DNA from: Desulfocapsa sulfexigens DSM 10523
Lineage (GTDB): Bacteria; Desulfobacterota; Desulfobulbia; Desulfobulbales; Desulfocapsaceae
Reading direction: 5' to 3'
Assembly (NCBI RefSeq): GCF_000341395.1
Contig: NC_020304.1
Coordinates: forward strand, 1,620,001-1,652,000
Length of the DNA stretch: 32,000 nucleotides
The notes beneath the pieces are model-generated. The model was given only the letters and a program-made list of their open reading frames with translations. It made no database searches and was not told the DNA's origin. Of the stretch, positions 3,349 through 26,462 are shown one piece after another. The translations under genes and the position numbers were made by a program. Within the stretch, counting starts at the first letter, position 1; every line of letters begins with the position of its first letter.

Positions 3349-4125
3349 ATGTTTACCAAAGAGAATAAAACCCATTTTCACCGTGCCTGGATCAGGTTGA
3401 TTTTTGCCTATCTGTCTGCATTCTTCCTCAGTTTTGCAGTTGGATCTTTCCTCATACAAATCATGGGGATGTCCCCGGAAACACTGTTTGAGTTTTCTAC
3501 TAAACGTGTTTCCTATGCCTTCCCAGTATTTCAAGCTGGAACAGAACTCGGAGTTGATCTGGGGCTTGTGTTGTTTTTCTGGAACAGCCTGGCCTCTATC
3601 ATTACTATTTCATTTCTCTATACTGCACCGCTCTTTAATCCCCGGGACACCCTCCTTTTTCCACAAACGATACGGAAGATGCTCTGTGGCAGAAGAAGAA
3701 TGAAACTACTCTGTTTTCTCCCGGGATGCTTGAAGTTTGAAGAAGAGTCGCTTCGCAGGGTCTATGTGTGGCTGATGGTACCCTGGTTGGGAATGATACT
3801 GCTTGGTATGGAAAGTGGGCTGACCGTTTCAACGTCAAGCTATGCGTTTGGATCCTATGGCGTAGGCTTTCTTTCCCTGATCCCCCACGGCGTAGTGGAA
3901 ATTCCGACCATTGCCCTTGCCGGAGCAGTCGTGTTTGCCGTACATCTGGTAATCAAAAAAGAATCGGTGGAAAAGAATTCGGAAGAAATATTTGCATTTA
4001 TTAATAGTTTTAAACAGGAGGTTCCTTTGAGACGAATAGTCCTGTTCGTCATGTCTTTTTTGTTTGTTGCCGGGCTGGTTGAAGGTCACATCACACCGAA
4101 AATCCTGGATGCTCTGGTTCAATAA
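3349..4125 (+). CDS. Integral membrane protein, SpoIIM-like (stage II sporulation protein M / DUF95-type)
   Basis: 258 aa with multiple hydrophobic spans. The IPHGVVEIPTIALAGAV motif resembles the conserved HG-x-x-E-(I/L)-P segment of SpoIIM-family proteins. Confidence 0.55.
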   Translation: MFTKENKTHFHRAWIRLIFAYLSAFFLSFAVGSFLIQIMGMSPETLFEFSTKRVSYAFPVFQAGTELGVDLGLVLFFWNSLASIITISFLYTAPLFNPRDTLLFPQTIRKMLCGRRRMKLLCFLPGCLKFEEESLRRVYVWLMVPWLGMILLGMESGLTVSTSSYAFGSYGVGFLSLIPHGVVEIPTIALAGAVVFAVHLVIKKESVEKNSEEIFAFINSFKQEVPLRRIVLFVMSFLFVAGLVEGHITPKILDALVQ

Positions 4126-4159
4126 TTGAGTCACCTGTTCTAAGGGGTGACCGTGTCAA

Positions 4160-5050
4160 TTAGGAGAGATCCTTCTGCTTCCTAAATGAAAACGTCGTTA
4201 TGAAGATACCTGTGAAAACCAGCACCATCCCCTGGACATGATAGCCCAGTAGAACCTCTTCTAAAAAAACAATTGCCAGGATGGTACTGAATACCGGCAT
4301 CAAATGGATAAAAGGCCCAGCCCGGTTTGCCCCCACCTCCCTGATTGCCCGGGTCCAGCAGATAAATGCCAGAATTGAGGCAAACAGAGCTACATAGCTG
4401 ATGGTCAGTATGGTCTCAATATTTATTTGTATGTGTTTGCCACTCTGTATTTCAAACAGATAACAGGGCAGAAGAAACACCAGTCCCGTCAGCATAATAC
4501 CGGTCAAGTAGGTGATGGGATGCAGGCCTGCCGGATAATGTCTCAAGTTTGCTGAGTAAAAGGCCCAGACAAGAGCTGCCACCAGTACCAGCAGGTCACC
4601 CTGGTTAAATGTCAGTTGCTGCAAGGTGTTTATGTTCCCCTTTGCAATGATTAACAGAACACCGCTTAAAGAAATAAAGACTCCGATGGACTGTCTCATG
4701 CTCAATGGTTCCCGGTAGATTAGTAAAGATATGAGAACGATGATTATCGGTATACAGGAGTTTACCAGAACAGCATTAATTGCTGTGGTCGATTGCAGGG
4801 CGAGATAGATGAAAGTATTGAATCCGGCAACTCCCAGGATCCCCTGCCAAAGCATAAACCGCCGATGTTGAATCAGAAGTTTTCGTTGTTCGTAGACGCG
4901 TCGCAGGCCAAAGGGGGCAATGATCAGTAAGGCCAGAGTCCAGCGCCAGAAGGCGAGGCTTACCGGTGGAATCTCGGCATGCATGCCTCGACTTAAGACA
5001 AAGTTCCCAGACCAGAAAAGGGCACTTAGGGTGAGCAGTAGATATGGCAT
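4160..5050 (-). CDS. EamA/DMT-family transporter
   Basis: 296 aa, about 10 predicted TM helices in two similar halves. N-terminus LLTLSALFWSGNFVLSR is typical of EamA/RhaT-type permeases. Confidence 0.8.
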   Translation of the reverse strand: MPYLLLTLSALFWSGNFVLSRGMHAEIPPVSLAFWRWTLALLIIAPFGLRRVYEQRKLLIQHRRFMLWQGILGVAGFNTFIYLALQSTTAINAVLVNSCIPIIIVLISLLIYREPLSMRQSIGVFISLSGVLLIIAKGNINTLQQLTFNQGDLLVLVAALVWAFYSANLRHYPAGLHPITYLTGIMLTGLVFLLPCYLFEIQSGKHIQINIETILTISYVALFASILAFICWTRAIREVGANRAGPFIHLMPVFSTILAIVFLEEVLLGYHVQGMVLVFTGIFITTFSFRKQKDLS

Positions 5051-5266
5051 AAAGATAGGTTGTTGTAGATGGTTATTAAATGTTCATTGCATTCCCTTTA
5101 GGGAACATGTTTAACCAGATGAAGACCGACTGTGAGTTCTTCCATGGATTGTGTGCTCTGGATTGTTATGAGTACAATAATTACATTGACAATGTCAAAA
5201 ATATGTTTGGATGATAGATGTTTTGTCTGGTGCATACCACTTTGGTTTCCATAGAAGGATTATAAA

Positions 5267-5857
5267 ATGCTGGATAATATCCTGCCCTTTGTCTTGTTTG
5301 TTGTTGCTATGACCGGAACGCCTGGCCCCGGCAATCTTACTATGATGGCTATCGGGCAGACCACTGGCTTTGCCAGTTCCATTCCGTTTCTTATCGGGAC
5401 GGCTGTGGGGTGCCTGATGCTCGATACTCTGGTTGCCTGTGGCCTGGGGGAGATTATCGTTGCTTCCCCTGCGATTGCCACCCTTCTGCGTATTGGAGGT
5501 GTGGTTTATATTTTGTATCTGGCCGGGAAGATACTGGTGCTGCAATTGAATACCAAAAAACTCGAAAAGCGGTTTTCATTTTTTGAGGGGTTTCTGATTC
5601 ACCCGTTAAGTCCAAAGAGCTGGGCCATGGCAATTGTTGCCTTTAGTCAGTTTATGAATCCGGACCATCCGCTTTTGCCTCAGGTTATGGTTTTTGTCCT
5701 CACCTTTTTGATAGGCCTGTTGCTGTTTCACAGCTCGTGGTGCGCGGCAGGGGCGCTTATTCCTCGTCTGGTCAGTTCCAGACGGATATTGTTCGGCGTG
5801 AATTGTATTATGGTTACACTTATGCTTGGTGCTACCGGGTATGCCATGTTTGTCTGA
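5267..5857 (+). CDS. LysE/RhtB-family amino-acid exporter
   Basis: 196 aa, hydrophobic. N-terminal FVVAMTGTPGPGNL matches the conserved TPGP motif of LysE translocators. Confidence 0.8.
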   Translation: MLDNILPFVLFVVAMTGTPGPGNLTMMAIGQTTGFASSIPFLIGTAVGCLMLDTLVACGLGEIIVASPAIATLLRIGGVVYILYLAGKILVLQLNTKKLEKRFSFFEGFLIHPLSPKSWAMAIVAFSQFMNPDHPLLPQVMVFVLTFLIGLLLFHSSWCAAGALIPRLVSSRRILFGVNCIMVTLMLGATGYAMFV

Positions 5858-6038
5858 AGTTCATTTCTAGGCTTCCAAGTAAGGACCAGAAAAAAGTTCA
5901 AAGATGAATTGAATACCTATAGTTCTGTAAAATAGAGAAAAAAACGAAGCTACTGCGGTAGTTTTGCCGTGCAGAGTGAAGCGTTAAGGAATTGATTGAA
6001 TACACAGTAATGTAATGGTCAGGATAATAGGCCGGCCT

Positions 6039-6071
6039 AGAGTTTGTCTGCCGGATTGGCAGACAAACTCT
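6039..6071. terminator. Perfect 14-bp stem / 5-nt loop hairpin between convergent genes (putative bidirectional terminator)
   Basis: AGAGTTTGTCTGCC ggatt GGCAGACAAACTCT, lying between the 3' ends of the LysE gene (+) and the carbonic anhydrase gene (-). There is no clear U-tract on either side, so terminator function is inferred only from position and stem strength. Confidence 0.5.
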
Positions 6072-6115
6072 CCAGGCCACCTGATCATCAATTGTTCTTG
6101 ATTTTTGAGCTATAC

Positions 6116-6898
6116 TTATTTTGCCATTGCGTCCATGGCTCTGTTAGGATTTGCCTCAACTTTTTTCAGGATTTCTGTGGTTTTTGCTTCAGGTAACCAG
6201 TTGACTTTGCCAGTTGATACGTCGTAGATAGCTCCTACAACTTTGGCTTTCCCGGAGTTAACAAGATCTCGAGAAACAGGGCTTTTCATAAACAGATCCT
6301 CCATTCCCTGCCAGATGTTCTCTTCAATTGCATAGGGTATTACGTCAGCACCATGAGCTGTTGGATTGTCTGCAATTGCTTTTTTCACAGCTGGGATGAT
6401 GTTGTCAACCAGAGTTGGGATGTTTCTTTCAAGTGGATGACCATGACCTTGTACGGCATTTGTCACTGCAGTTACAGCCCCACACTGAGTATGTCCAAGC
6501 ACCACAAAGACAGGGGTGTTTACATGAGCCAGGCCGTATTCAACAGATCCTGCTTCATCAACATCCAGCACATTTCCGGCCACACGAATAACAAAAATAT
6601 CCATGATTCCGGCATCAAAGAGAATCTCAACAGGAACCCTGGAGTCAGAGCAAGCGATTATGGTTGCATAGGCGTAGTCTCCCTGATCTTCTTTGCCGGC
6701 CAGGGCCAGTCGGGCAGCATCAAGATGGGGTTGAGTGGATTTACCGTTAACAAAACGCTCGTTACCGGCTTTGAGCAAGGCTATTGCCTCATCCGGACTT
6801 GGCTTGGCTGCTTTTGTGCCACTGGCCAGAACTGGACCTGTGGTGAGAGCCACGAAGCAAAAAGCTGTTACAATTGATTTTAAAAATTTTGTGTTCAT
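6116..6898 (-). CDS. Secreted beta-class carbonic anhydrase
   Basis: Beta-CA zinc-ligand motifs CSDSRV and GHTQCGAV. I moved the start from the ORF-track 7003 to the ATG at 6898 (MNTKFLKSIV...ASG signal peptide), which has AGGAGG 6-7 nt upstream. Confidence 0.85.
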   Translation of the reverse strand: MNTKFLKSIVTAFCFVALTTGPVLASGTKAAKPSPDEAIALLKAGNERFVNGKSTQPHLDAARLALAGKEDQGDYAYATIIACSDSRVPVEILFDAGIMDIFVIRVAGNVLDVDEAGSVEYGLAHVNTPVFVVLGHTQCGAVTAVTNAVQGHGHPLERNIPTLVDNIIPAVKKAIADNPTAHGADVIPYAIEENIWQGMEDLFMKSPVSRDLVNSGKAKVVGAIYDVSTGKVNWLPEAKTTEILKKVEANPNRAMDAMAK

Positions 6899-13866: not shown

Positions 13867-13918
13867 TATCCCTGATCAAGTAATGATCACAAGTAAAAAG
13901 AAGAAGTAAAAAGGGTCG

Positions 13919-13978
13919 GAGTGAAATTAAATCGAGAACAACGGTAAAGTACTGATAGTTTGATTTCACTCTGGCCCC
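13919..13978 (-). repeat. 60-nt imperfect palindrome, copy A (attC-like cassette boundary element)
   Basis: GAGTGAAATTAAATC...GTTTGATTTCACTC. Arms GAGTGAAAT / ATTTCACTC pair. 51 of 60 positions are identical to copy B at 16582..16641 by hand alignment. It overlaps the stop codon of the 13966..14604 gene. Confidence 0.6.
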
Positions 13979-14604
13979 TCCAATTCCTTGTCATCGCAAT
14001 CGGCTGGTAAGAAGGTGATTTTGAAAAAGCTATTACCACCCGCGGGAGTATATTCACCTGTATGTAAGCTCACTGTTACGAGTTCATCCTTCAATTGCGA
14101 AAGACTAGCACTCATTAAAATGCGTGCTTTGATCTTAAGGTCCCCTGCAAAGCATATGGTGTCTTGATCATTGTCCTGTCGTTCCGAAATGCCACCGTAT
14201 GTCTCTTCTTTGCATACGACCTTGAATGGCCCTTCTGTGGTATACAAACGTATTCTTGTTCTTCCTCCATGCAAATGCACATGTTTAGTGACTGTGTAGC
14301 AACCCACTCTCACTTTTGTTGGGGTATCCACTTCTATTGTACCTTCGAGGTCGACAGCAAAGGTGCAAATACTTTTCTTCTCATTGTCGACAAGCCATCG
14401 CGAAGTTGCGATAGCGCTACCCTCGATTTCAATCATATCAGATGTGCTGTTCAAAGTTACACTATCACCGCAATGTTTGTTGTTCACGGACTCCAGAACC
14501 TTAAAGCCTGTTACTTCCCAATTGGCATAGCCAAAGGCAAAAACACTGGATTGTGAAAGAGTGATAAGAAGTACGAGCGTAACAGCTAGCAAAGAATATC
14601 TCAT
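13966..14604 (-). CDS. Secreted hypothetical protein (212 aa, signal peptide, 6 Cys), last gene of the RiPP-like module
   Basis: N-terminal MRYSLLAVTLVLLITLSQSSVFA signal peptide. Composition looks beta-rich. 71 nt downstream of the radical SAM gene, same strand. Confidence 0.7.
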   Translation of the reverse strand: MRYSLLAVTLVLLITLSQSSVFAFGYANWEVTGFKVLESVNNKHCGDSVTLNSTSDMIEIEGSAIATSRWLVDNEKKSICTFAVDLEGTIEVDTPTKVRVGCYTVTKHVHLHGGRTRIRLYTTEGPFKVVCKEETYGGISERQDNDQDTICFAGDLKIKARILMSASLSQLKDELVTVSLHTGEYTPAGGNSFFKITFLPADCDDKELEGPE

Positions 14605-14675
14605 AATGTCCTCAAAACTTACTCTGATCCCTTTATTTGTTATTTGTTAATTTATCTTTGGCGCTATTCTATCCG

Positions 14676-16109
14676 TTAATAGAGACGGGTTGTAAGAGGA
14701 GCTGCCTTTGGACAAAATGGATTGGTGGTAAACAGGCGACCATAGGCTTTATATGTGTCTTTAAAACAATGCCCTTTTACCATGACACAAAATTCAAAAT
14801 TATCACATTCATAGCATGAAGAATTTTTAAAGTTTTCTTTTCTAGGATATGCTAGTTCCTTTAACTCTTGAGAGTTCCATACTGATTCAAGACTCGAGTC
14901 AGTTAAATCACCAACTAAAAAAGGTCCATTTTGCGGTACTTCCTCACAAATAGACACCTTTCCATCCGGTGCGATAATAAGTGAACTGCGGCCAGAAGAA
15001 CAACTGGGTCGATCTTTGAGCCAGTAATGAGCCCGCTCCTGATCGCTCATCATCGTCGGCTCGGGTAATCGATTATGGAAAATAGTTATTCCATCTGAAC
15101 CATACTTGTTTGCCAGCCAGTTCATTTTATCATCGAATTCTAGGAGTTGGTTCTCTCCTAATAGTATAGAATTGTTGTCTTTGTTCATTGATCGAAAAGC
15201 AGGTGAAAATTTCATTTCACAAATCCCGAGGTCACGGAGTGTAATGATTATATCTTCCAATTGATCAAAGTTGTGTTGAGTTATAATACTATTGGTACGA
15301 GTAAATATCTGTGTGTCTCGTAAATTCTCAAGGGTTTTAATAATCCGAGCATGTTGTCCAGATCGTCCTAAGATTAAATCCCCGGTCGATGAATTTGCGG
15401 CATCAACGCTTACTTGAAGATAATCAAGTCCTACTTCTTCAAGCCGCCGCACAATCTGTTTGTCGAGAAAAGCTTTGGTGGACATATCTACAACTATCCC
15501 AAGCTTTAAAGCATGCGCAATAATTTCAATTACGTCTGGATGACAGAAGGGATCACCGCCGCAAAAATTAACTTGGTTAGTGCCAAGTCTTCCCATCTCA
15601 TCGATTAATTCCAGAATCCGACTAGTTGCCAATTGGTAGTTGCCAGGAACTTTTCTTCGACAAGCGTAACAATATATACAGTCAGCCTGGCAGTTAAAAG
15701 TGATTTGAAAGATCAAAGAAATCGGCGCTTCAAGCCTTGTTTTCATGTCAAGGTGTTGCGCTGGAATAATGAAATCCGATGGATTAAATCGTTTAACTAT
15801 TTTGCCGACTGCATCTCGAATAAGCATCTTACCGTCTGGAGTGATGTAATTCAAAACCTCCATTAACTGTTTCCTGGAATCGGTGATGGGCAGACCTGAA
15901 AGGAATGAAATTATACCTACGACCTCCCCAACAGTTCGTTTCCCATCCAGAAGTGAAAAAATTGAAGCAGCTGGGGAGGGTAATACACCATACTCAAGTT
16001 CGAGATGAGGAAGATAGGAGATAACAACTTTTGTTTTTTCTCGACGCATGAAGACAAAAGGAGAAATTCCTAATACTTCATTGTCTCTAAATCCTTTTTC
16101 ATCAAGCAT
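14676..16109 (-). CDS. Radical SAM / SPASM-domain peptide maturase with N-terminal PqqD-like RRE
   Basis: CxxxCxxC in FNCQADCIYCY. GGDPF SAM-binding-type motif. The C-terminal Cys pattern C-x12-G-x4-C ... CxxCx5Cx6C ... C is typical of SPASM auxiliary 4Fe-4S sites. The N-terminal about 100 aa with LLDGKRTVGEVVGIISFL resembles a PqqD-like RiPP recognition element. Confidence 0.9.
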   Translation of the reverse strand: MLDEKGFRDNEVLGISPFVFMRREKTKVVISYLPHLELEYGVLPSPAASIFSLLDGKRTVGEVVGIISFLSGLPITDSRKQLMEVLNYITPDGKMLIRDAVGKIVKRFNPSDFIIPAQHLDMKTRLEAPISLIFQITFNCQADCIYCYACRRKVPGNYQLATSRILELIDEMGRLGTNQVNFCGGDPFCHPDVIEIIAHALKLGIVVDMSTKAFLDKQIVRRLEEVGLDYLQVSVDAANSSTGDLILGRSGQHARIIKTLENLRDTQIFTRTNSIITQHNFDQLEDIIITLRDLGICEMKFSPAFRSMNKDNNSILLGENQLLEFDDKMNWLANKYGSDGITIFHNRLPEPTMMSDQERAHYWLKDRPSCSSGRSSLIIAPDGKVSICEEVPQNGPFLVGDLTDSSLESVWNSQELKELAYPRKENFKNSSCYECDNFEFCVMVKGHCFKDTYKAYGRLFTTNPFCPKAAPLTTRLY

Positions 16110-16127
16110 ATAAGTTTCAGATAATAA

Positions 16128-16508
16128 TCATGTTGCTTTTGAACCACAGACTTGCCCATATGTACATGTAACGGGACCACCACCAGAATTTTTACCGCAG
16201 ACTTCATTTCCACATGTCCCGCTAGACTTACAGGTAACATCTGCATCAGAATTGCACGCTGAACCGGTACAAGCACCACCATCACAACTCGAGCTTGCAA
16301 GACAGGCCACGTGCGAACAAACTCCTGCCAAACAATCGTCAGGCCAGATCTTCGCTTCATTAACGATACCGATGAAGTCTTCATAGCCTGCTTCCTTATA
16401 AGCGTTCTTCAATTTAAGCCATACTTCCGAGGACTCTCCCTGACATGCGTTATCCACAATTGATTTTAGAAATTTTAAATCTCGACCTTCTTGTTTTTTT
16501 ACTGACAT
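16128..16508 (-). CDS. Cys-rich RiPP precursor peptide candidate (126 aa: about 58-aa leader plus 68-aa core with 11 Cys)
   Basis: GAGGAG lies 6 nt upstream of the ATG. The stop codon is 18 nt before the maturase start. The core is C-LAGV-C-SHVA-C-LASSS-C-DGGA-C-TGSA-C-NSDADVT-C-KSSGT-C-GNEV-C-GKNSGGGPVT-C-TYGQV-C-GSKAT, rich in Gly/Ser/Ala/Thr. Confidence 0.75.
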   Translation of the reverse strand: MSVKKQEGRDLKFLKSIVDNACQGESSEVWLKLKNAYKEAGYEDFIGIVNEAKIWPDDCLAGVCSHVACLASSSCDGGACTGSACNSDADVTCKSSGTCGNEVCGKNSGGGPVTCTYGQVCGSKAT

Positions 16509-16581
16509 GTTTTCTCCTCACTCACATTGACCCAGAGGGTAATGTCCCAAAACTTGATTAGTTGAGTAGTAATAAAGGACA

Positions 16582-16641
16582 GAGTAAAATTATAGCGAGA
16601 GCGACGGTAAAGTGCTGATGGGTTGATTTCACTCTGCCCCC
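16582..16641 (-). repeat. 60-nt imperfect palindrome, copy B (attC-like cassette boundary element)
   Basis: GAGTAAAATTATAGC...GGTTGATTTCACTC. See copy A. It lies between the rhodanese stop codon (16663) and the precursor gene. Confidence 0.6.
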
Positions 16642-16662
16642 TTTGTTTCTGTAATAAATGAT

Positions 16663-17142: not shown

Positions 17143-18450
17143 CTATTCCACATTTTTACCTGATTCAATTGCTTCATATTCTTCAGGGTAATGCTCTTTC
17201 ATACAATCAGGGCATATGCCGTGACTGATATTTGCGTCAGAATTTTTGTGAATATAAACATCCACTTGTTCCCAGTATCCTTTGTCGTCACGAACTTTTT
17301 TACAAAATGAACAAAGAGGCAGAATCCCTTGTAAGGTTTTAATTTCATCAAAAGCCTTATTGAGTTCTTTAACATGTCTTTCTAGTTCTGCTTCTGCTTG
17401 TTTATGTGCTTCAATTTTTTTAGACAGTATGATGTTTGACTTATATATTTTTACTGCCATCAGTACGATTGAAATTAGGAGGATAAAAATGATTACGGTC
17501 TGGATCATATGCTGGGTGATGAAGCCACGGACAGTAATTATGCCGTAATCCTTATAGGGTCCGACGCGCAATTCTTTTAAAAGCTCATGCGCCTGTTGAT
17601 AATCGTAGGGAAGCGTCCATTCTTGGAACCCTGCCTTTTGAGCTACAGGGCTGTTGCTCTCAAGAGACAGCAGAGCTTTAGCGACATCCTTACTTAACTC
17701 ATTGGTTGCATTACGGGTCTTAGCAAAAGCCCATTCTGGATAAAGCTCTGAGCTTACCATCATGGGGAAGTCAGGATAATGCTTGGGGGCTAAAACACGA
17801 AAATTATCAAGATCAATCCGATTTGATTCTGAGAACTTCTCCAACATACCAGTTCTAATAACCGCGACATCTACAACCCCATCCAATACAGCCTGTATCT
17901 CCTTAGGCTGATCGCCAAGAAATTTTACTTCTTTGGCATCGTTATATGGATAAAAACCATGAGTCAGCATCTCCTTATAGCCGACCAGCCAACCGCCAAA
18001 GCCAAGTTTAGCAACACCACAGATGGTTTTGCCATATAAGTCTTCTATTGTTTTTATCCCACTATCAGCACGGGTGATTAATGTTGAGCCGAACTCGGCC
18101 ACTCCCCCTTTTTTTACCATTGTGAGGATGCGGGATATGCCAAAGTTCAACTCGAGATCCACATAAATTGCGGGCTGGGTAATAACGAAATCTATTTCCT
18201 GGTTTAAAACAAGGTTCCTAATACGGTCGAGTTCAATAGGCGGAACAGGAATCAGCCTAAAGTCATATTGAGGCAGAGACAATTGGAGGTAATCGATGGT
18301 TGGTTGCCATTCATCCTTGGCTATTTCAACTCCAGAGAGTGCAACAACCAGGACGTTTACCTTGTTCTGTTCATGGCTCTCAATGTGTTTAAATCCGGTA
18401 AGCGAAAGGAAACAAAATAATGCAATTAAACTTGCAATAAAACGTTTCAT
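17143..18450 (-). CDS. Membrane-anchored sensor-like protein: periplasmic PhnD-like binding domain, TM, coiled coil, C-terminal CxxC...H...CxxC tail
   Basis: The periplasmic domain is clearly paralogous to that of the first gene in the window (shared IDFV, FGGW, LYPEW-FA, ELR-GPY-D-G blocks). The tail is LPLCSFCKKVRDDKGYWEQVDVYIHKNSDANISHGICPDCMKEHYPE. No kinase, cyclase or HD domain. Confidence 0.8.
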   Translation of the reverse strand: MKRFIASLIALFCFLSLTGFKHIESHEQNKVNVLVVALSGVEIAKDEWQPTIDYLQLSLPQYDFRLIPVPPIELDRIRNLVLNQEIDFVITQPAIYVDLELNFGISRILTMVKKGGVAEFGSTLITRADSGIKTIEDLYGKTICGVAKLGFGGWLVGYKEMLTHGFYPYNDAKEVKFLGDQPKEIQAVLDGVVDVAVIRTGMLEKFSESNRIDLDNFRVLAPKHYPDFPMMVSSELYPEWAFAKTRNATNELSKDVAKALLSLESNSPVAQKAGFQEWTLPYDYQQAHELLKELRVGPYKDYGIITVRGFITQHMIQTVIIFILLISIVLMAVKIYKSNIILSKKIEAHKQAEAELERHVKELNKAFDEIKTLQGILPLCSFCKKVRDDKGYWEQVDVYIHKNSDANISHGICPDCMKEHYPEEYEAIESGKNVE

Positions 18451-18668: not shown

Positions 18669-18830
18669 TTGTATTACTGCGGAATCGATCTTCATGCCAG
18701 AAAAATGTATGTCGTTGTAATCAATGATAAAGGAAAAATGCTCCTCCACAAAAACATCAAAACTTATACAGATGAAAAGATGATAGTTATATCAGCCTTT
18801 CTGGAAGATACAGATATTGGAGTTGAATGA
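18669..18830 (+). pseudogene. N-terminal fragment (53 codons) of an IS110-family DEDD transposase
   Basis: Translation (TTG) YYCGIDLHARKMYVVVINDKGKMLLHKNIK... matches the conserved IS110-family N-terminus (compare LYAGIDLHSNNSHLAILDQDDKRVFHKKL in the intact copy at 25440). It ends prematurely at TGA 18828..18830. Confidence 0.6.
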
Positions 18831-25439: not shown

Positions 25440-26462
25440 ATGACTTCATTATACGCTGGAATCGATCTGCATTCAAACAATAGTCATTTAGCTATACTGG
25501 ATCAGGATGACAAACGAGTCTTTCACAAGAAACTTCCCAATATGGAAGATGTTCTGCTGGCTGAGCTCAAACCATTCCAAGATGAATTGTCTGCTGTTGT
25601 GGTGGAATCGACTTTCAATTGGTATTGGCTTGTAGACTGCCTGATGGAACAACGGTACGAGGTATTGCTGGCAAATCCTGCGGCCATGCTGCAGTACAAG
25701 GGGCTTAAGCATGTTGACGACAAACATGATGCCTTTTGGCTGGCCCATATGGCGAGGTTGGGCATTCTTCCACAGGGTTATATTTACCCTAAAGAGGAAA
25801 GACCTTTTCGTGATTTGCTGAGAAAAAGAGGTCATTTGGTTCGTCTGCGAACATCCGTAATCAACAGCCTGCAGGGGATCATCAGTCGAAACTGCGGCTG
25901 TAGCTTGAGCGGCAACAAGATGAAGCGCATGCGCGAGAATCATGTGGCGCCTCTTCTGACCGCTAATGAAGATCTTGCATTTAGTGGTGAAGTGTCCAGA
26001 GAGGTAATTGATTTTCTCGGACAGCAGATATCTCGGATTGAGCCTTTGGTGCTTGAGAAAGTACAACTACGCAAACCATTTCAATGCTTGCAGAGCATAC
26101 CGGGAGTTGGCAAAATCCTCTCTTTAACAATTATGCTGGAAACCGGACCAATCACTCGTTTCAAGAAGGTTGGTAATTTCACATCATATTGTCGCAAAGT
26201 ACCGACAACCTGGACAAGCAACAGCAAAAAGAAGGGCAAGGGAAACAGTAAAAACGGTAACAAGTATCTGGCCTGGACCTTTTCTGAGGCTGCGGAGTAT
26301 TCTCGACGCCACAGTGATCAAGCCAGAGCATTTTTCAATCGGAAAGCAGCCAGGACGAATAAATCGGTAGCCTACAGTGCGCTGGCGCACAAGTTGGCAA
26401 GGGCTTCTTACTACATGATGAGGGATCAGGTATGTTTTAACCCGAACAAGCTTTTTACCTAG
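25440..26462 (+). CDS. IS110-family (DEDD) transposase/recombinase
   Basis: 340 aa. N-terminal YAGIDLHS..., ESTFNWYWL, KHVDDKHDAFWLAHMARLGILP, C-terminal LQSIPGVGKILSLTIMLETG. AAGGAGG lies 8 nt upstream. Confidence 0.92.
   Translation: MTSLYAGIDLHSNNSHLAILDQDDKRVFHKKLPNMEDVLLAELKPFQDELSAVVVESTFNWYWLVDCLMEQRYEVLLANPAAMLQYKGLKHVDDKHDAFWLAHMARLGILPQGYIYPKEERPFRDLLRKRGHLVRLRTSVINSLQGIISRNCGCSLSGNKMKRMRENHVAPLLTANEDLAFSGEVSREVIDFLGQQISRIEPLVLEKVQLRKPFQCLQSIPGVGKILSLTIMLETGPITRFKKVGNFTSYCRKVPTTWTSNSKKKGKGNSKNGNKYLAWTFSEAAEYSRRHSDQARAFFNRKAARTNKSVAYSALAHKLARASYYMMRDQVCFNPNKLFT

Follow-up and report, generated by a model that had tools for sequence, protein, structure and literature searches.

A conserved radical SAM/SPASM maturase and its precursor with an 11-cysteine core in Desulfocapsa sulfexigens: a probable two-gene RiPP system with an undescribed leader

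The DNA analysed here (the window) is a stretch of 32,000 nucleotides (nt) of Desulfocapsa sulfexigens DSM 10523, positions 1,620,001 to 1,652,000 of the forward strand of contig NC_020304.1. The subject is a small cysteine-rich open reading frame (ORF) and the radical S-adenosylmethionine (SAM) enzyme encoded directly downstream of it. As proposed in a first-pass annotation made from the letters alone, three co-directional ORFs are present on the minus strand at 16128..16508, 14676..16109 and 13966..14604. They are 100% identical to UWK_01445 (AGF78005/WP_015403696), UWK_01444 (AGF78004/WP_015403695) and UWK_01443 (AGF78003/WP_015403694) of the D. sulfexigens DSM 10523 chromosome. The existing annotation lists UWK_01445 and UWK_01443 as hypothetical proteins and UWK_01444 as a generic radical SAM protein. 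The first two genes are most likely the precursor and the maturase of a ribosomally synthesized peptide with post-translational modifications (RiPP) that depends on a RiPP recognition element (RRE) and a radical SAM-SPASM enzyme, with an undescribed leader and a long, regular core of 11 cysteines.

The precursor gene UWK_01445 (16128..16508, minus strand; stop codon at 16128-16130) encodes 126 amino acids (aa). The strong ribosome-binding site claimed for it is readily found in the sequence, as a GAGGAG Shine-Dalgarno element at 16514..16519 (minus strand), 5 nt before the ATG, and the gap to the radical SAM gene is exactly the 18 nt given earlier. The leader (residues ~1-58, 16335-16508) is indeed charged, with 8 K, 6 E and 5 D among 58 residues. 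The core (residues 59-126, 16131-16334) carries its 11 cysteines where they had been placed, at positions 59, 64, 69, 75, 80, 85, 93, 99, 104, 115 and 121, with Cx4C or Cx5C in 8 of the 10 spacings. Cysteine makes up 16% of this core, and G, C, S, A, V, T, D and N together account for 82% of its 68 residues, in agreement with the small-residue composition described before. An additional twelfth cysteine at leader position 22 had not been mentioned.

Next to this composition, conservation and substitution patterns carry the case for a real gene. In an alignment of 11 members of the long-leader subfamily (precursors of 125-150 aa), R9, D10, C59, V63, C64, C69, C75, A79, C80 and C85 are invariant, while K34, G41, C93, T98, C99, C104, C115 and C121 are at least 90% conserved. 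Six of the 11 core cysteines are thus invariant and the remaining five are kept in at least 90% of the sequences. Within the leader, the motifs RD(L/I/V) and LK..(L)KE.GY are conserved. Computed against the orthologues at the related locus L001, at a dS of ~1, the ratio of non-synonymous to synonymous substitution rates (dN/dS) is 0.135 for the whole precursor, 0.195 for the leader, 0.094 for the core and 0.114 for the maturase. Such values reflect strong purifying selection on both genes, with the precursor core more tightly constrained than the leader. Given this conservation and the low dN/dS, the small ORF is a strongly constrained, protein-coding gene, and it is no chance feature, in view of the cysteine content of the core, its conservation across 11 relatives and its dN/dS. 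An overlapping 104-aa ORF in another frame (16070-16384) was rejected as an artefact, the precursor frame being the conserved one. The precursor matches 0 NCBIfam families at E-values up to 1 and no Pfam family, and the hidden Markov models (HMMs) of Nif11-type and NHLP-type leaders in NCBIfam and Pfam gave no match for it or for six of its relatives. Judged from its sequence, the leader is of a type as yet undescribed, and the core is unusually long and regular.

The second gene, UWK_01444 (14676..16109, minus strand), encodes a predicted radical SAM/SPASM peptide maturase of 477 aa. Pfam recognizes a Radical_SAM domain (PF04055, 80.6 bits, cutoff 29.5) and a SPASM domain (PF13186, 42.6 bits, cutoff 21.5, covering residues 370-436). 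Both the CxxxCxxC motif and the full seven-cysteine SPASM domain described earlier are present. The former (C140-X3-C144-X2-C147, 15669..15692, minus strand) is kept in 29/29 homologues and, together with the resemblance of the AlphaFold2 model to solved radical SAM structures, places the enzyme in the radical SAM superfamily. The SPASM cysteines (14712..15002, minus strand) are arranged as C370-X12-G-X4-C388, C432-X2-C435-X5-C441-X6-C448 and C466, so that the last spacing is X6 throughout the family and not the canonical X3 (CX9-15GX4C ... CX2CX5CX3C ... C). Overall, CX3CX2C and the seven-cysteine SPASM arrangement are found in 28-29 of the 29 homologues. Per-column cysteine frequencies over these sequences show exactly seven conserved C-terminal cysteines. 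An eighth is not conserved: position 347 is a cysteine in 59% of the sequences and an arginine in the window enzyme. Seven conserved SPASM cysteines without an eighth therefore point to two [4Fe-4S] clusters with only seven protein ligands. The structure of CteB (PDB 5WHY/5WGG) has the same seven-ligand arrangement, which leaves auxiliary cluster I with a free iron that binds the substrate cysteine.

The N-terminus of the maturase (residues ~1-122, 15744..16109, minus strand) had been described as a PqqD-like recognition element. This description stands at the level of profile and fold and does not reach the sequence threshold of Pfam, where PqqD (PF05402) gives no match for the window maturase and matches 3 of 20 N-terminal domains of the family, with a best E-value of 0.075. 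When the 20 domains were combined into a profile, the two best matches in the Protein Data Bank were both PqqD (5sxy, E = 0.011; 5vrd, E = 0.18), and the alignment spans the characteristic 'L.L.DG.rT..ei' segment. The AlphaFold2 model has strands at 19-23, 28-32 and 39-43 followed by helices at 45-52, 60-71 and 75-89, with a predicted local distance difference test score (pLDDT) above 90 in this region. At the fold level, the assignment of this winged-helix-like N-terminus as an RRE is therefore supported by the model, and also by its full-length alignments with SuiB and CteB, both of which carry an RRE.

A search of NCBIfam release 20 with the maturase returned 73 sub-threshold matches and no equivalog. 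PqqE ranked highest (104 bits, cutoff 381), and next came MftC (99 bits), TIGR04053, AhbD (94 bits), the Nif11-class maturase 3, GeoRSP, StsB (79 bits) and others; AlbA (57 bits) and PapB (55 bits) also stayed far under their cutoffs. The relatives of the maturase within its clade likewise have no NCBIfam family membership. The AlphaFold2 model, built with 29 homologues, has an overall pLDDT of 94.4 and a predicted TM-score (pTM) of 0.91. A fold search with this model placed SkfB on top (E = 1.6e-18, target-normalised TM-score 0.73), followed by SuiB (aligned over 483-508 columns, RRE included), PqqE and CteB (470 columns). The anaerobic sulfatase-maturating enzyme (anSME, ~4e-13), viperin and MoaA rank under these RiPP maturases. 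An identity as anSME was rejected, based on the presence of an RRE, the conservation of only seven cysteines, the lower fold rank and the absence of anSME from the top NCBIfam matches. In addition, no sulfatase gene adjoins the maturase among its window neighbours. A maturase grouping with anSME next to an unconserved small ORF, as would have spoken against a RiPP, was not observed, and the small ORF is kept beside the homologues of the enzyme.

This pairing was followed over loci whose maturase homologues range in identity between 77% and 28%, within the closer clades and where upstream sequence existed. In every related locus examined, ten besides the window (L001, L002, L004, L006, L007, L010, L011, L012, L013 and L015), a cysteine-rich ORF lies immediately upstream of the maturase gene on the same strand, as the proposed pairing of precursor and maturase predicts. 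A blastn comparison of the window with L001 gives a single block, 14678-16522, of 77% identity. It contains the ribosome-binding site, the precursor and the maturase, with the Shine-Dalgarno element still inside the block, and ends at the maturase stop codon. Given their conservation across loci, the small ORF and the RRE-containing radical SAM-SPASM enzyme are a genuine conserved precursor/maturase pair.

The wider clade includes a short-leader subfamily (subfamily B), in which the leader terminates in a GG-like motif (LSLDAVGGG, LSLVSMRGG). Of its loci, L007 has an adjacent S8 peptidase and ABC exporter, and another has an adjacent Rce1-like protease. The GG leaders together with the peptidase and exporter of L007 fit RiPP logic for the wider clade. 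The long-leader subfamily has no such neighbours in the five contexts inspected, and for the window module the earlier statement that leader peptidase and ABC exporter are missing from its vicinity is correct.

Two of the subfamily B precursors had been missed by the source annotation, at L007 (4510-4857, 115 aa) and at L011 (3573-3917, 114 aa). At L007, a 48-aa ORF on the opposite strand is annotated in place of the precursor. Gene callers systematically overlook such low-complexity Cys/Gly/Ser/Ala genes, and protein databases probably under-count the family as a result. The frequent non-calling of the precursor helps to explain why the family is absent from curation. Variation in the precursor is also seen elsewhere. 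At L012, a 126-aa precursor (3565-3945) with a long, helical-looking leader has a C-terminal core of Cx2C/Cx3C spacing (GCPFCTTCITSCLECVTSCTACVACSNDVF) and lies downstream of a gene for a B12-binding radical SAM protein. A more distant locus (L024, 30% identity) comes from the cultured rhizobium Mesorhizobium amorphae. Here, a 78-aa precursor (3658-3894) ending in GCDSCTVCPCMICW is accompanied by two consecutive radical SAM genes (4001-5512 and 5523-6893), without an NCBIfam match at E-values up to 1e-20, and its leader segment 'LIKKKGLKV' resembles the LK..KE.GY motif of the window family.

The third gene, UWK_01443 (13966..14604, minus strand), had been described as part of the module. Just as reported, it encodes a 212-aa protein with six cysteines and a signal peptide of the usual Sec type (MR, hydrophobic residues, then VFA|F). 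No Pfam match at E-values up to 1 and no NCBIfam match was obtained. Among 5.8 billion proteins, a single homologue was detected, in which all six cysteines are kept. This homologue lies on short contigs in a context different from that of the window, with 86.6% nucleotide identity limited to window positions 13982-14621, and the gene upstream of it is not a radical SAM gene. An arrangement in which the 212-aa protein acts as a third partner (for immunity, as chaperone, as receptor or in processing) within a repeat-bounded mobile cassette would be in keeping with the co-directional genes, the 71-nt spacing, the lack of a terminator between the radical SAM gene and the third gene, and the 78-nt repeats that bracket exactly these three genes. 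Nevertheless, none of the 10 related maturase loci has the third gene, and in L001, where homology ends at the radical SAM stop codon, the gene downstream of the maturase encodes a different, 125-aa protein. Moreover, its dN/dS of 0.64 against its only homologue reflects a different regime from the 0.11-0.13 of the pair. The role of partner assigned to the secreted protein was therefore not upheld, and a three-gene module is very improbable. The bounded homologies, the separate contexts and the contrasting dN/dS indicate that the trio is a juxtaposition of two independently occurring units, and the module itself is, as far as these comparisons indicate, one of two genes and not three. The 212-aa protein is an orphan secreted protein without a detectable family or fold. 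Its AlphaFold2 model, from a two-sequence alignment, has a pLDDT of 34.7 and is unusable, and the UniRef name 'Organic solvent tolerance-like N-terminal domain' was set aside as unconfirmed in view of the Pfam result.

The two 78-nt direct repeats are 82% identical, and each lies just 3' of a minus-strand gene. Copy 1 (13902..13979) is at the 3' end of the 212-aa gene and copy 2 (16565..16642) between the stop codon of a rhodanese gene and the precursor gene. Both form stem-loops with a stem of 17-19 bp and a loop of ~25 nt, the loop sequence being conserved as well (copy 1: -19.8 kcal/mol, z = -2.1; copy 2: 17-bp stem, -24.6 kcal/mol, z = -5.6). A 12-mer search with 2 mismatches detected no copies in the window beyond these two, with a total count no higher than in shuffled sequence. 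The repeat has no counterpart in L001 or L008, nor at the other related loci. A scan of metagenome contigs with the hairpin pattern gave four chance matches without similarity outside the pattern, and Rfam gave no match in the window. A reading as integron attC sites was rejected, since the outer stem is GGGG/CCCC, the ends lack the R''/R' consensus (RYYYAAC/GTTRRRY, AAC/GTT) and the window holds no integrase. This last result refers to the window ORFs of at least 110 aa that were scanned, with overlapping, opposite-strand and antisense ORFs lying outside that scan. The repeat could be a repetitive extragenic palindromic (REP)-like or miniature inverted-repeat transposable element (MITE)-like element, or it could act as a shared terminator or in recombination. 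Of the mobile cassette suggested in the first-pass annotation, the sharp homology bounds, the unrelated contexts and the bracketing repeat remain, but attC ends, an integrase and copies of the repeat at other loci are missing. That both units have sharp homology limits and turn up in different contexts is compatible with horizontal movement.

At L006, the pair is directly preceded by a Y1 (IS200-like) transposase gene (3720-4376) and followed by a VapB antitoxin gene (6694-6885), which fits a pair sitting in mobile or accessory DNA. In the window, an intact IS110-family transposase (DEDD_Tnp_IS110 and Transposase_20 domains) is encoded at 25440-26462 on the plus strand, ~9 kb from the module. 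A 53-aa ORF at 18669-18830 (plus strand), ~2.2 kb upstream of the module, is possibly a remnant of an insertion sequence, given its resemblance to the IS110 N-terminus ('YCGIDLHARK...', pairwise E = 2e-6, 24% identity). Between 19238 and 24434 (minus strand) lies a run of co-directional small genes, encoding DJ-1/PfpI, TetR, two GNAT acetyltransferases, a transglutaminase-like protein and a class-III aminotransferase. The GC content is 0.38-0.41 over this region, compared to ~0.47 left of 14 kb. Based on these accessory-type genes and the lower GC content, the module therefore lies at the edge of an apparent accessory island.

Closer to the pair, 17143-18450 (minus strand) encodes a 435-aa protein with a periplasmic Phosphonate-bd domain resembling the TtrS tetrathionate sensor (158 bits), followed by a transmembrane segment and a coiled coil. 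Its C-terminus has a CxxC...CxxC arrangement (CSFCKKVRDDKGYWEQVD...HGICPDCMKEH) replacing the histidine-kinase domain. A second Phosphonate-bd sensor, at 24-2702, is fused to GAF, HD-GYP and GGDEF domains. The rhodanese and the TtrS-like protein encoded upstream of the pair were considered as functional partners and rejected, since none of the related loci has kept them.

The pair belongs to a rare family. A word-indexed search with the precursor found one relative (P0002, 79% identity), and HMMER, run exhaustively over 1.84 billion cluster representatives, gave only eight at E-values up to 1e-3. For the maturase, 48 clusters were obtained at E-values up to 1e-10, most of them singletons. Its clade was detected in 7 of 185,579 species-representative genomes, all of them metagenome-assembled genomes, assigned to Colwellbacteria, Bythopirellula, Planctomycetaceae, Anaerolineales, Gammaproteobacteria, Terriglobales and Delongbacteria. 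This count is a lower bound, as the scan did not return D. sulfexigens itself. The family is thus rare and scattered over phyla, occurring in Desulfobulbia, the candidate phyla radiation (CPR) group Colwellbacteria, Planctomycetota and Chloroflexota. As anticipated, the HMM searches against NCBIfam and Pfam place the pair outside SCIFF, ACGX, Nif11 and NHLP, and no curated RiPP family of these databases, CefA included, was matched. A literature search by accession, by locus tag and for Desulfocapsa radical SAM enzymes or RiPPs found no paper on the pair.

Taken as a whole, we favour the reading of a minimal two-gene RiPP system in which the leader guides the installation of multiple cysteine thioether cross-links, and consider it somewhat better than an even proposition. 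Its parts differ in strength. That the two genes form a radical SAM-modified RiPP-type pair is highly probable, while thioether chemistry specifically (sactionine or ranthionine), suggested by analogy, has about an even chance of being correct or slightly more. In this scheme, the leader would be captured by the N-terminal RRE of the maturase and the 68-aa core threaded into the barrel. A core cysteine thiolate would then bind the open iron site of auxiliary cluster I, as in the chemistry of CteB, SkfB, AlbA and PapB. Reductive cleavage of SAM would yield a 5'-deoxyadenosyl radical that takes a hydrogen from a carbon of the acceptor residue, and an intramolecular S-C thioether (sactionine or ranthionine) would form. 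Repeated along the Cx4-5C array, this cycle might give a heavily cross-linked mini-protein of ~7 kDa.

The architecture and the cysteine-rich substrate are consistent with the sactipeptide/ranthipeptide class. Several observations, on the other hand, weigh against this reading. The NCBIfam scores do not separate enzyme classes for the maturase, the RRE assignment is sub-threshold at the sequence level, and a RiPP-type peptidase or exporter is lacking near the window pair. Furthermore, a 126-aa precursor with a 68-aa core is at or past the usual RiPP sizes, and the surroundings of the pair show no conspicuous promoter or terminator signal. Sactisynthases are also paraphyletic with enzymes forming C-C and C-O bonds (PMC10288494), and a cysteine-rich substrate is therefore suggestive of thioethers and not proof of them.

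The same point bears on a second explanation, in which the pair is genuine but the enzyme performs another radical SAM chemistry, such as C-C or C-O cross-linking, epimerisation, conversion of cysteine to formylglycine or dehydroalanine, or thio-oxazole-type chemistry, and the cysteines serve as disulfides or metal ligands in the mature product. The best family scores, PqqE, MftC and AhbD, belong to enzymes none of which forms thioethers, and SuiB (a Lys-Trp C-C bond) and PqqE rank among the top fold matches. The literature also holds sequence to be no guide to function in this clade (PMC10288494), and the conserved V63, A79 and T98 could be the real targets. Dense cysteines are nonetheless the sole substrate feature common to the clade despite differing leaders and lengths, and a seven-cysteine SPASM domain leaves a ligand site open, which fits the binding of a thiolate. 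We regard the non-thioether explanation as rather unlikely.

As for the fate of the product under the favoured thioether reading, the lack of a dedicated protease or exporter in the long-leader subfamily and a core that is more conserved than the leader make it seem SCIFF-like. By analogy, it looks more like a conserved, possibly cell-associated product than a fast-evolving secreted bacteriocin. These features would also suit a protein that stays whole and cell-associated, as a QhpC-like subunit or a metal or sulfur binder, with the radical SAM enzyme as its dedicated protein maturase and the 'leader' as a docking domain. The length of the long-leader precursors and the rhodanese and TtrS-like sulfur-sensing genes directly upstream in a sulfur-disproportionating organism go in the same direction. 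However, neither L001 nor any other locus keeps the rhodanese and sensor genes as neighbours, and no candidate partner enzyme co-occurs with the pair. An uncleaved protein is accordingly improbable, and it departs from the two-gene thioether reading solely in the fate of the product and not in the enzymology.

Among known systems, SCIFF (CteA-CteB) is similar to the window pair in being a two-gene unit of a peptide and an RRE-containing radical SAM-SPASM enzyme without dedicated protease or exporter, with a conserved cysteine-rich core of small residues and a seven-cysteine SPASM domain lacking an eighth ligand. It differs in its ~45-aa peptide with 6 cysteines, compared to 126 aa, 11 cysteines and an unrelated ~58-aa leader here. 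The SCIFF models TIGR03973/TIGR03974 gave no precursor match, and the maturase model is not among the 25 best matches of the window enzyme. SCIFF is widespread in Clostridia, whereas the window family is rare and scattered. SkfB, the best structural match, as well as AlbA and StsB share with the maturase an N-terminal RRE, a radical SAM domain and auxiliary clusters, and form thioethers from cysteine sulfur to C-alpha on leader-bearing peptides. The sequence scores of the maturase are nevertheless far under the family cutoffs of StsB (625 bits) and AlbA (850 bits). Known sactipeptides have 3-4 cysteines in cores of 20-35 aa with hairpin connectivity, in contrast to 11 evenly spaced cysteines in 68 aa.

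The 'Cys-every-fifth RiPP peptide' CefA (NF038108) resembles the window precursor in its Cx4C periodicity and small-residue core. Only the subfamily B precursor of L011 gives a weak, sub-threshold match to this model, with 15.9 bits against a cutoff of 30, and the window precursor and the other members give none. No Cef-type maturase model is among the top matches of the maturase, and no literature on CefA was found. QhpC/QhpD is comparable in that a radical SAM-SPASM enzyme installs several cysteine thioethers in a leader-bearing polypeptide of ~80-110 aa, and L007 shares the qhp-like combination of S8 peptidase and ABC exporter, neither of which the window locus has. Different from that system, the qhpA/qhpB dehydrogenase genes are lacking here, and QhpD is not in the top NCBIfam matches. 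The ACGX system (TIGR04340, rSAM_ACGX) likewise combines a radical SAM-SPASM enzyme with a repetitive Cys/Gly/Ala-rich substrate, but the precursor has no ACGX repeat and the ACGX maturase model is outside the top 25 matches of the window enzyme. On distant relatives, this model scores 43-53 bits against a cutoff of 400.

Radical SAM-SPASM RiPPs are productive ground for new cross-link chemistry. In this family, a minimal system of just two genes is available for clean tests, and it comes from an anaerobe that is in culture and has a sequenced genome; the correction from three genes to two avoids wasted work on a spurious partner. The substrate stands out by its size and regularity, with 11 conserved cysteines. 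If ~10 thioethers were indeed installed processively, the product would rank with the most heavily cross-linked of all known ribosomal peptides, with far more bridges than any characterised sacti- or ranthipeptide, and the enzyme would be a useful catalyst for scaffold stapling. With a conserved core and no export machinery, the product could serve in the cell or its envelope, e.g., in metal or sulfur handling. More tentatively, the family may represent a class of hyper-cross-linked mini-proteins, with a core of ~68 residues, up to ~10 radical SAM-installed thioether or other cysteine-derived bridges at a Cx4-5C period, and a leader and maturase clade outside the curated families, which would have such a conserved intracellular or envelope role and would not act as antibiotics.

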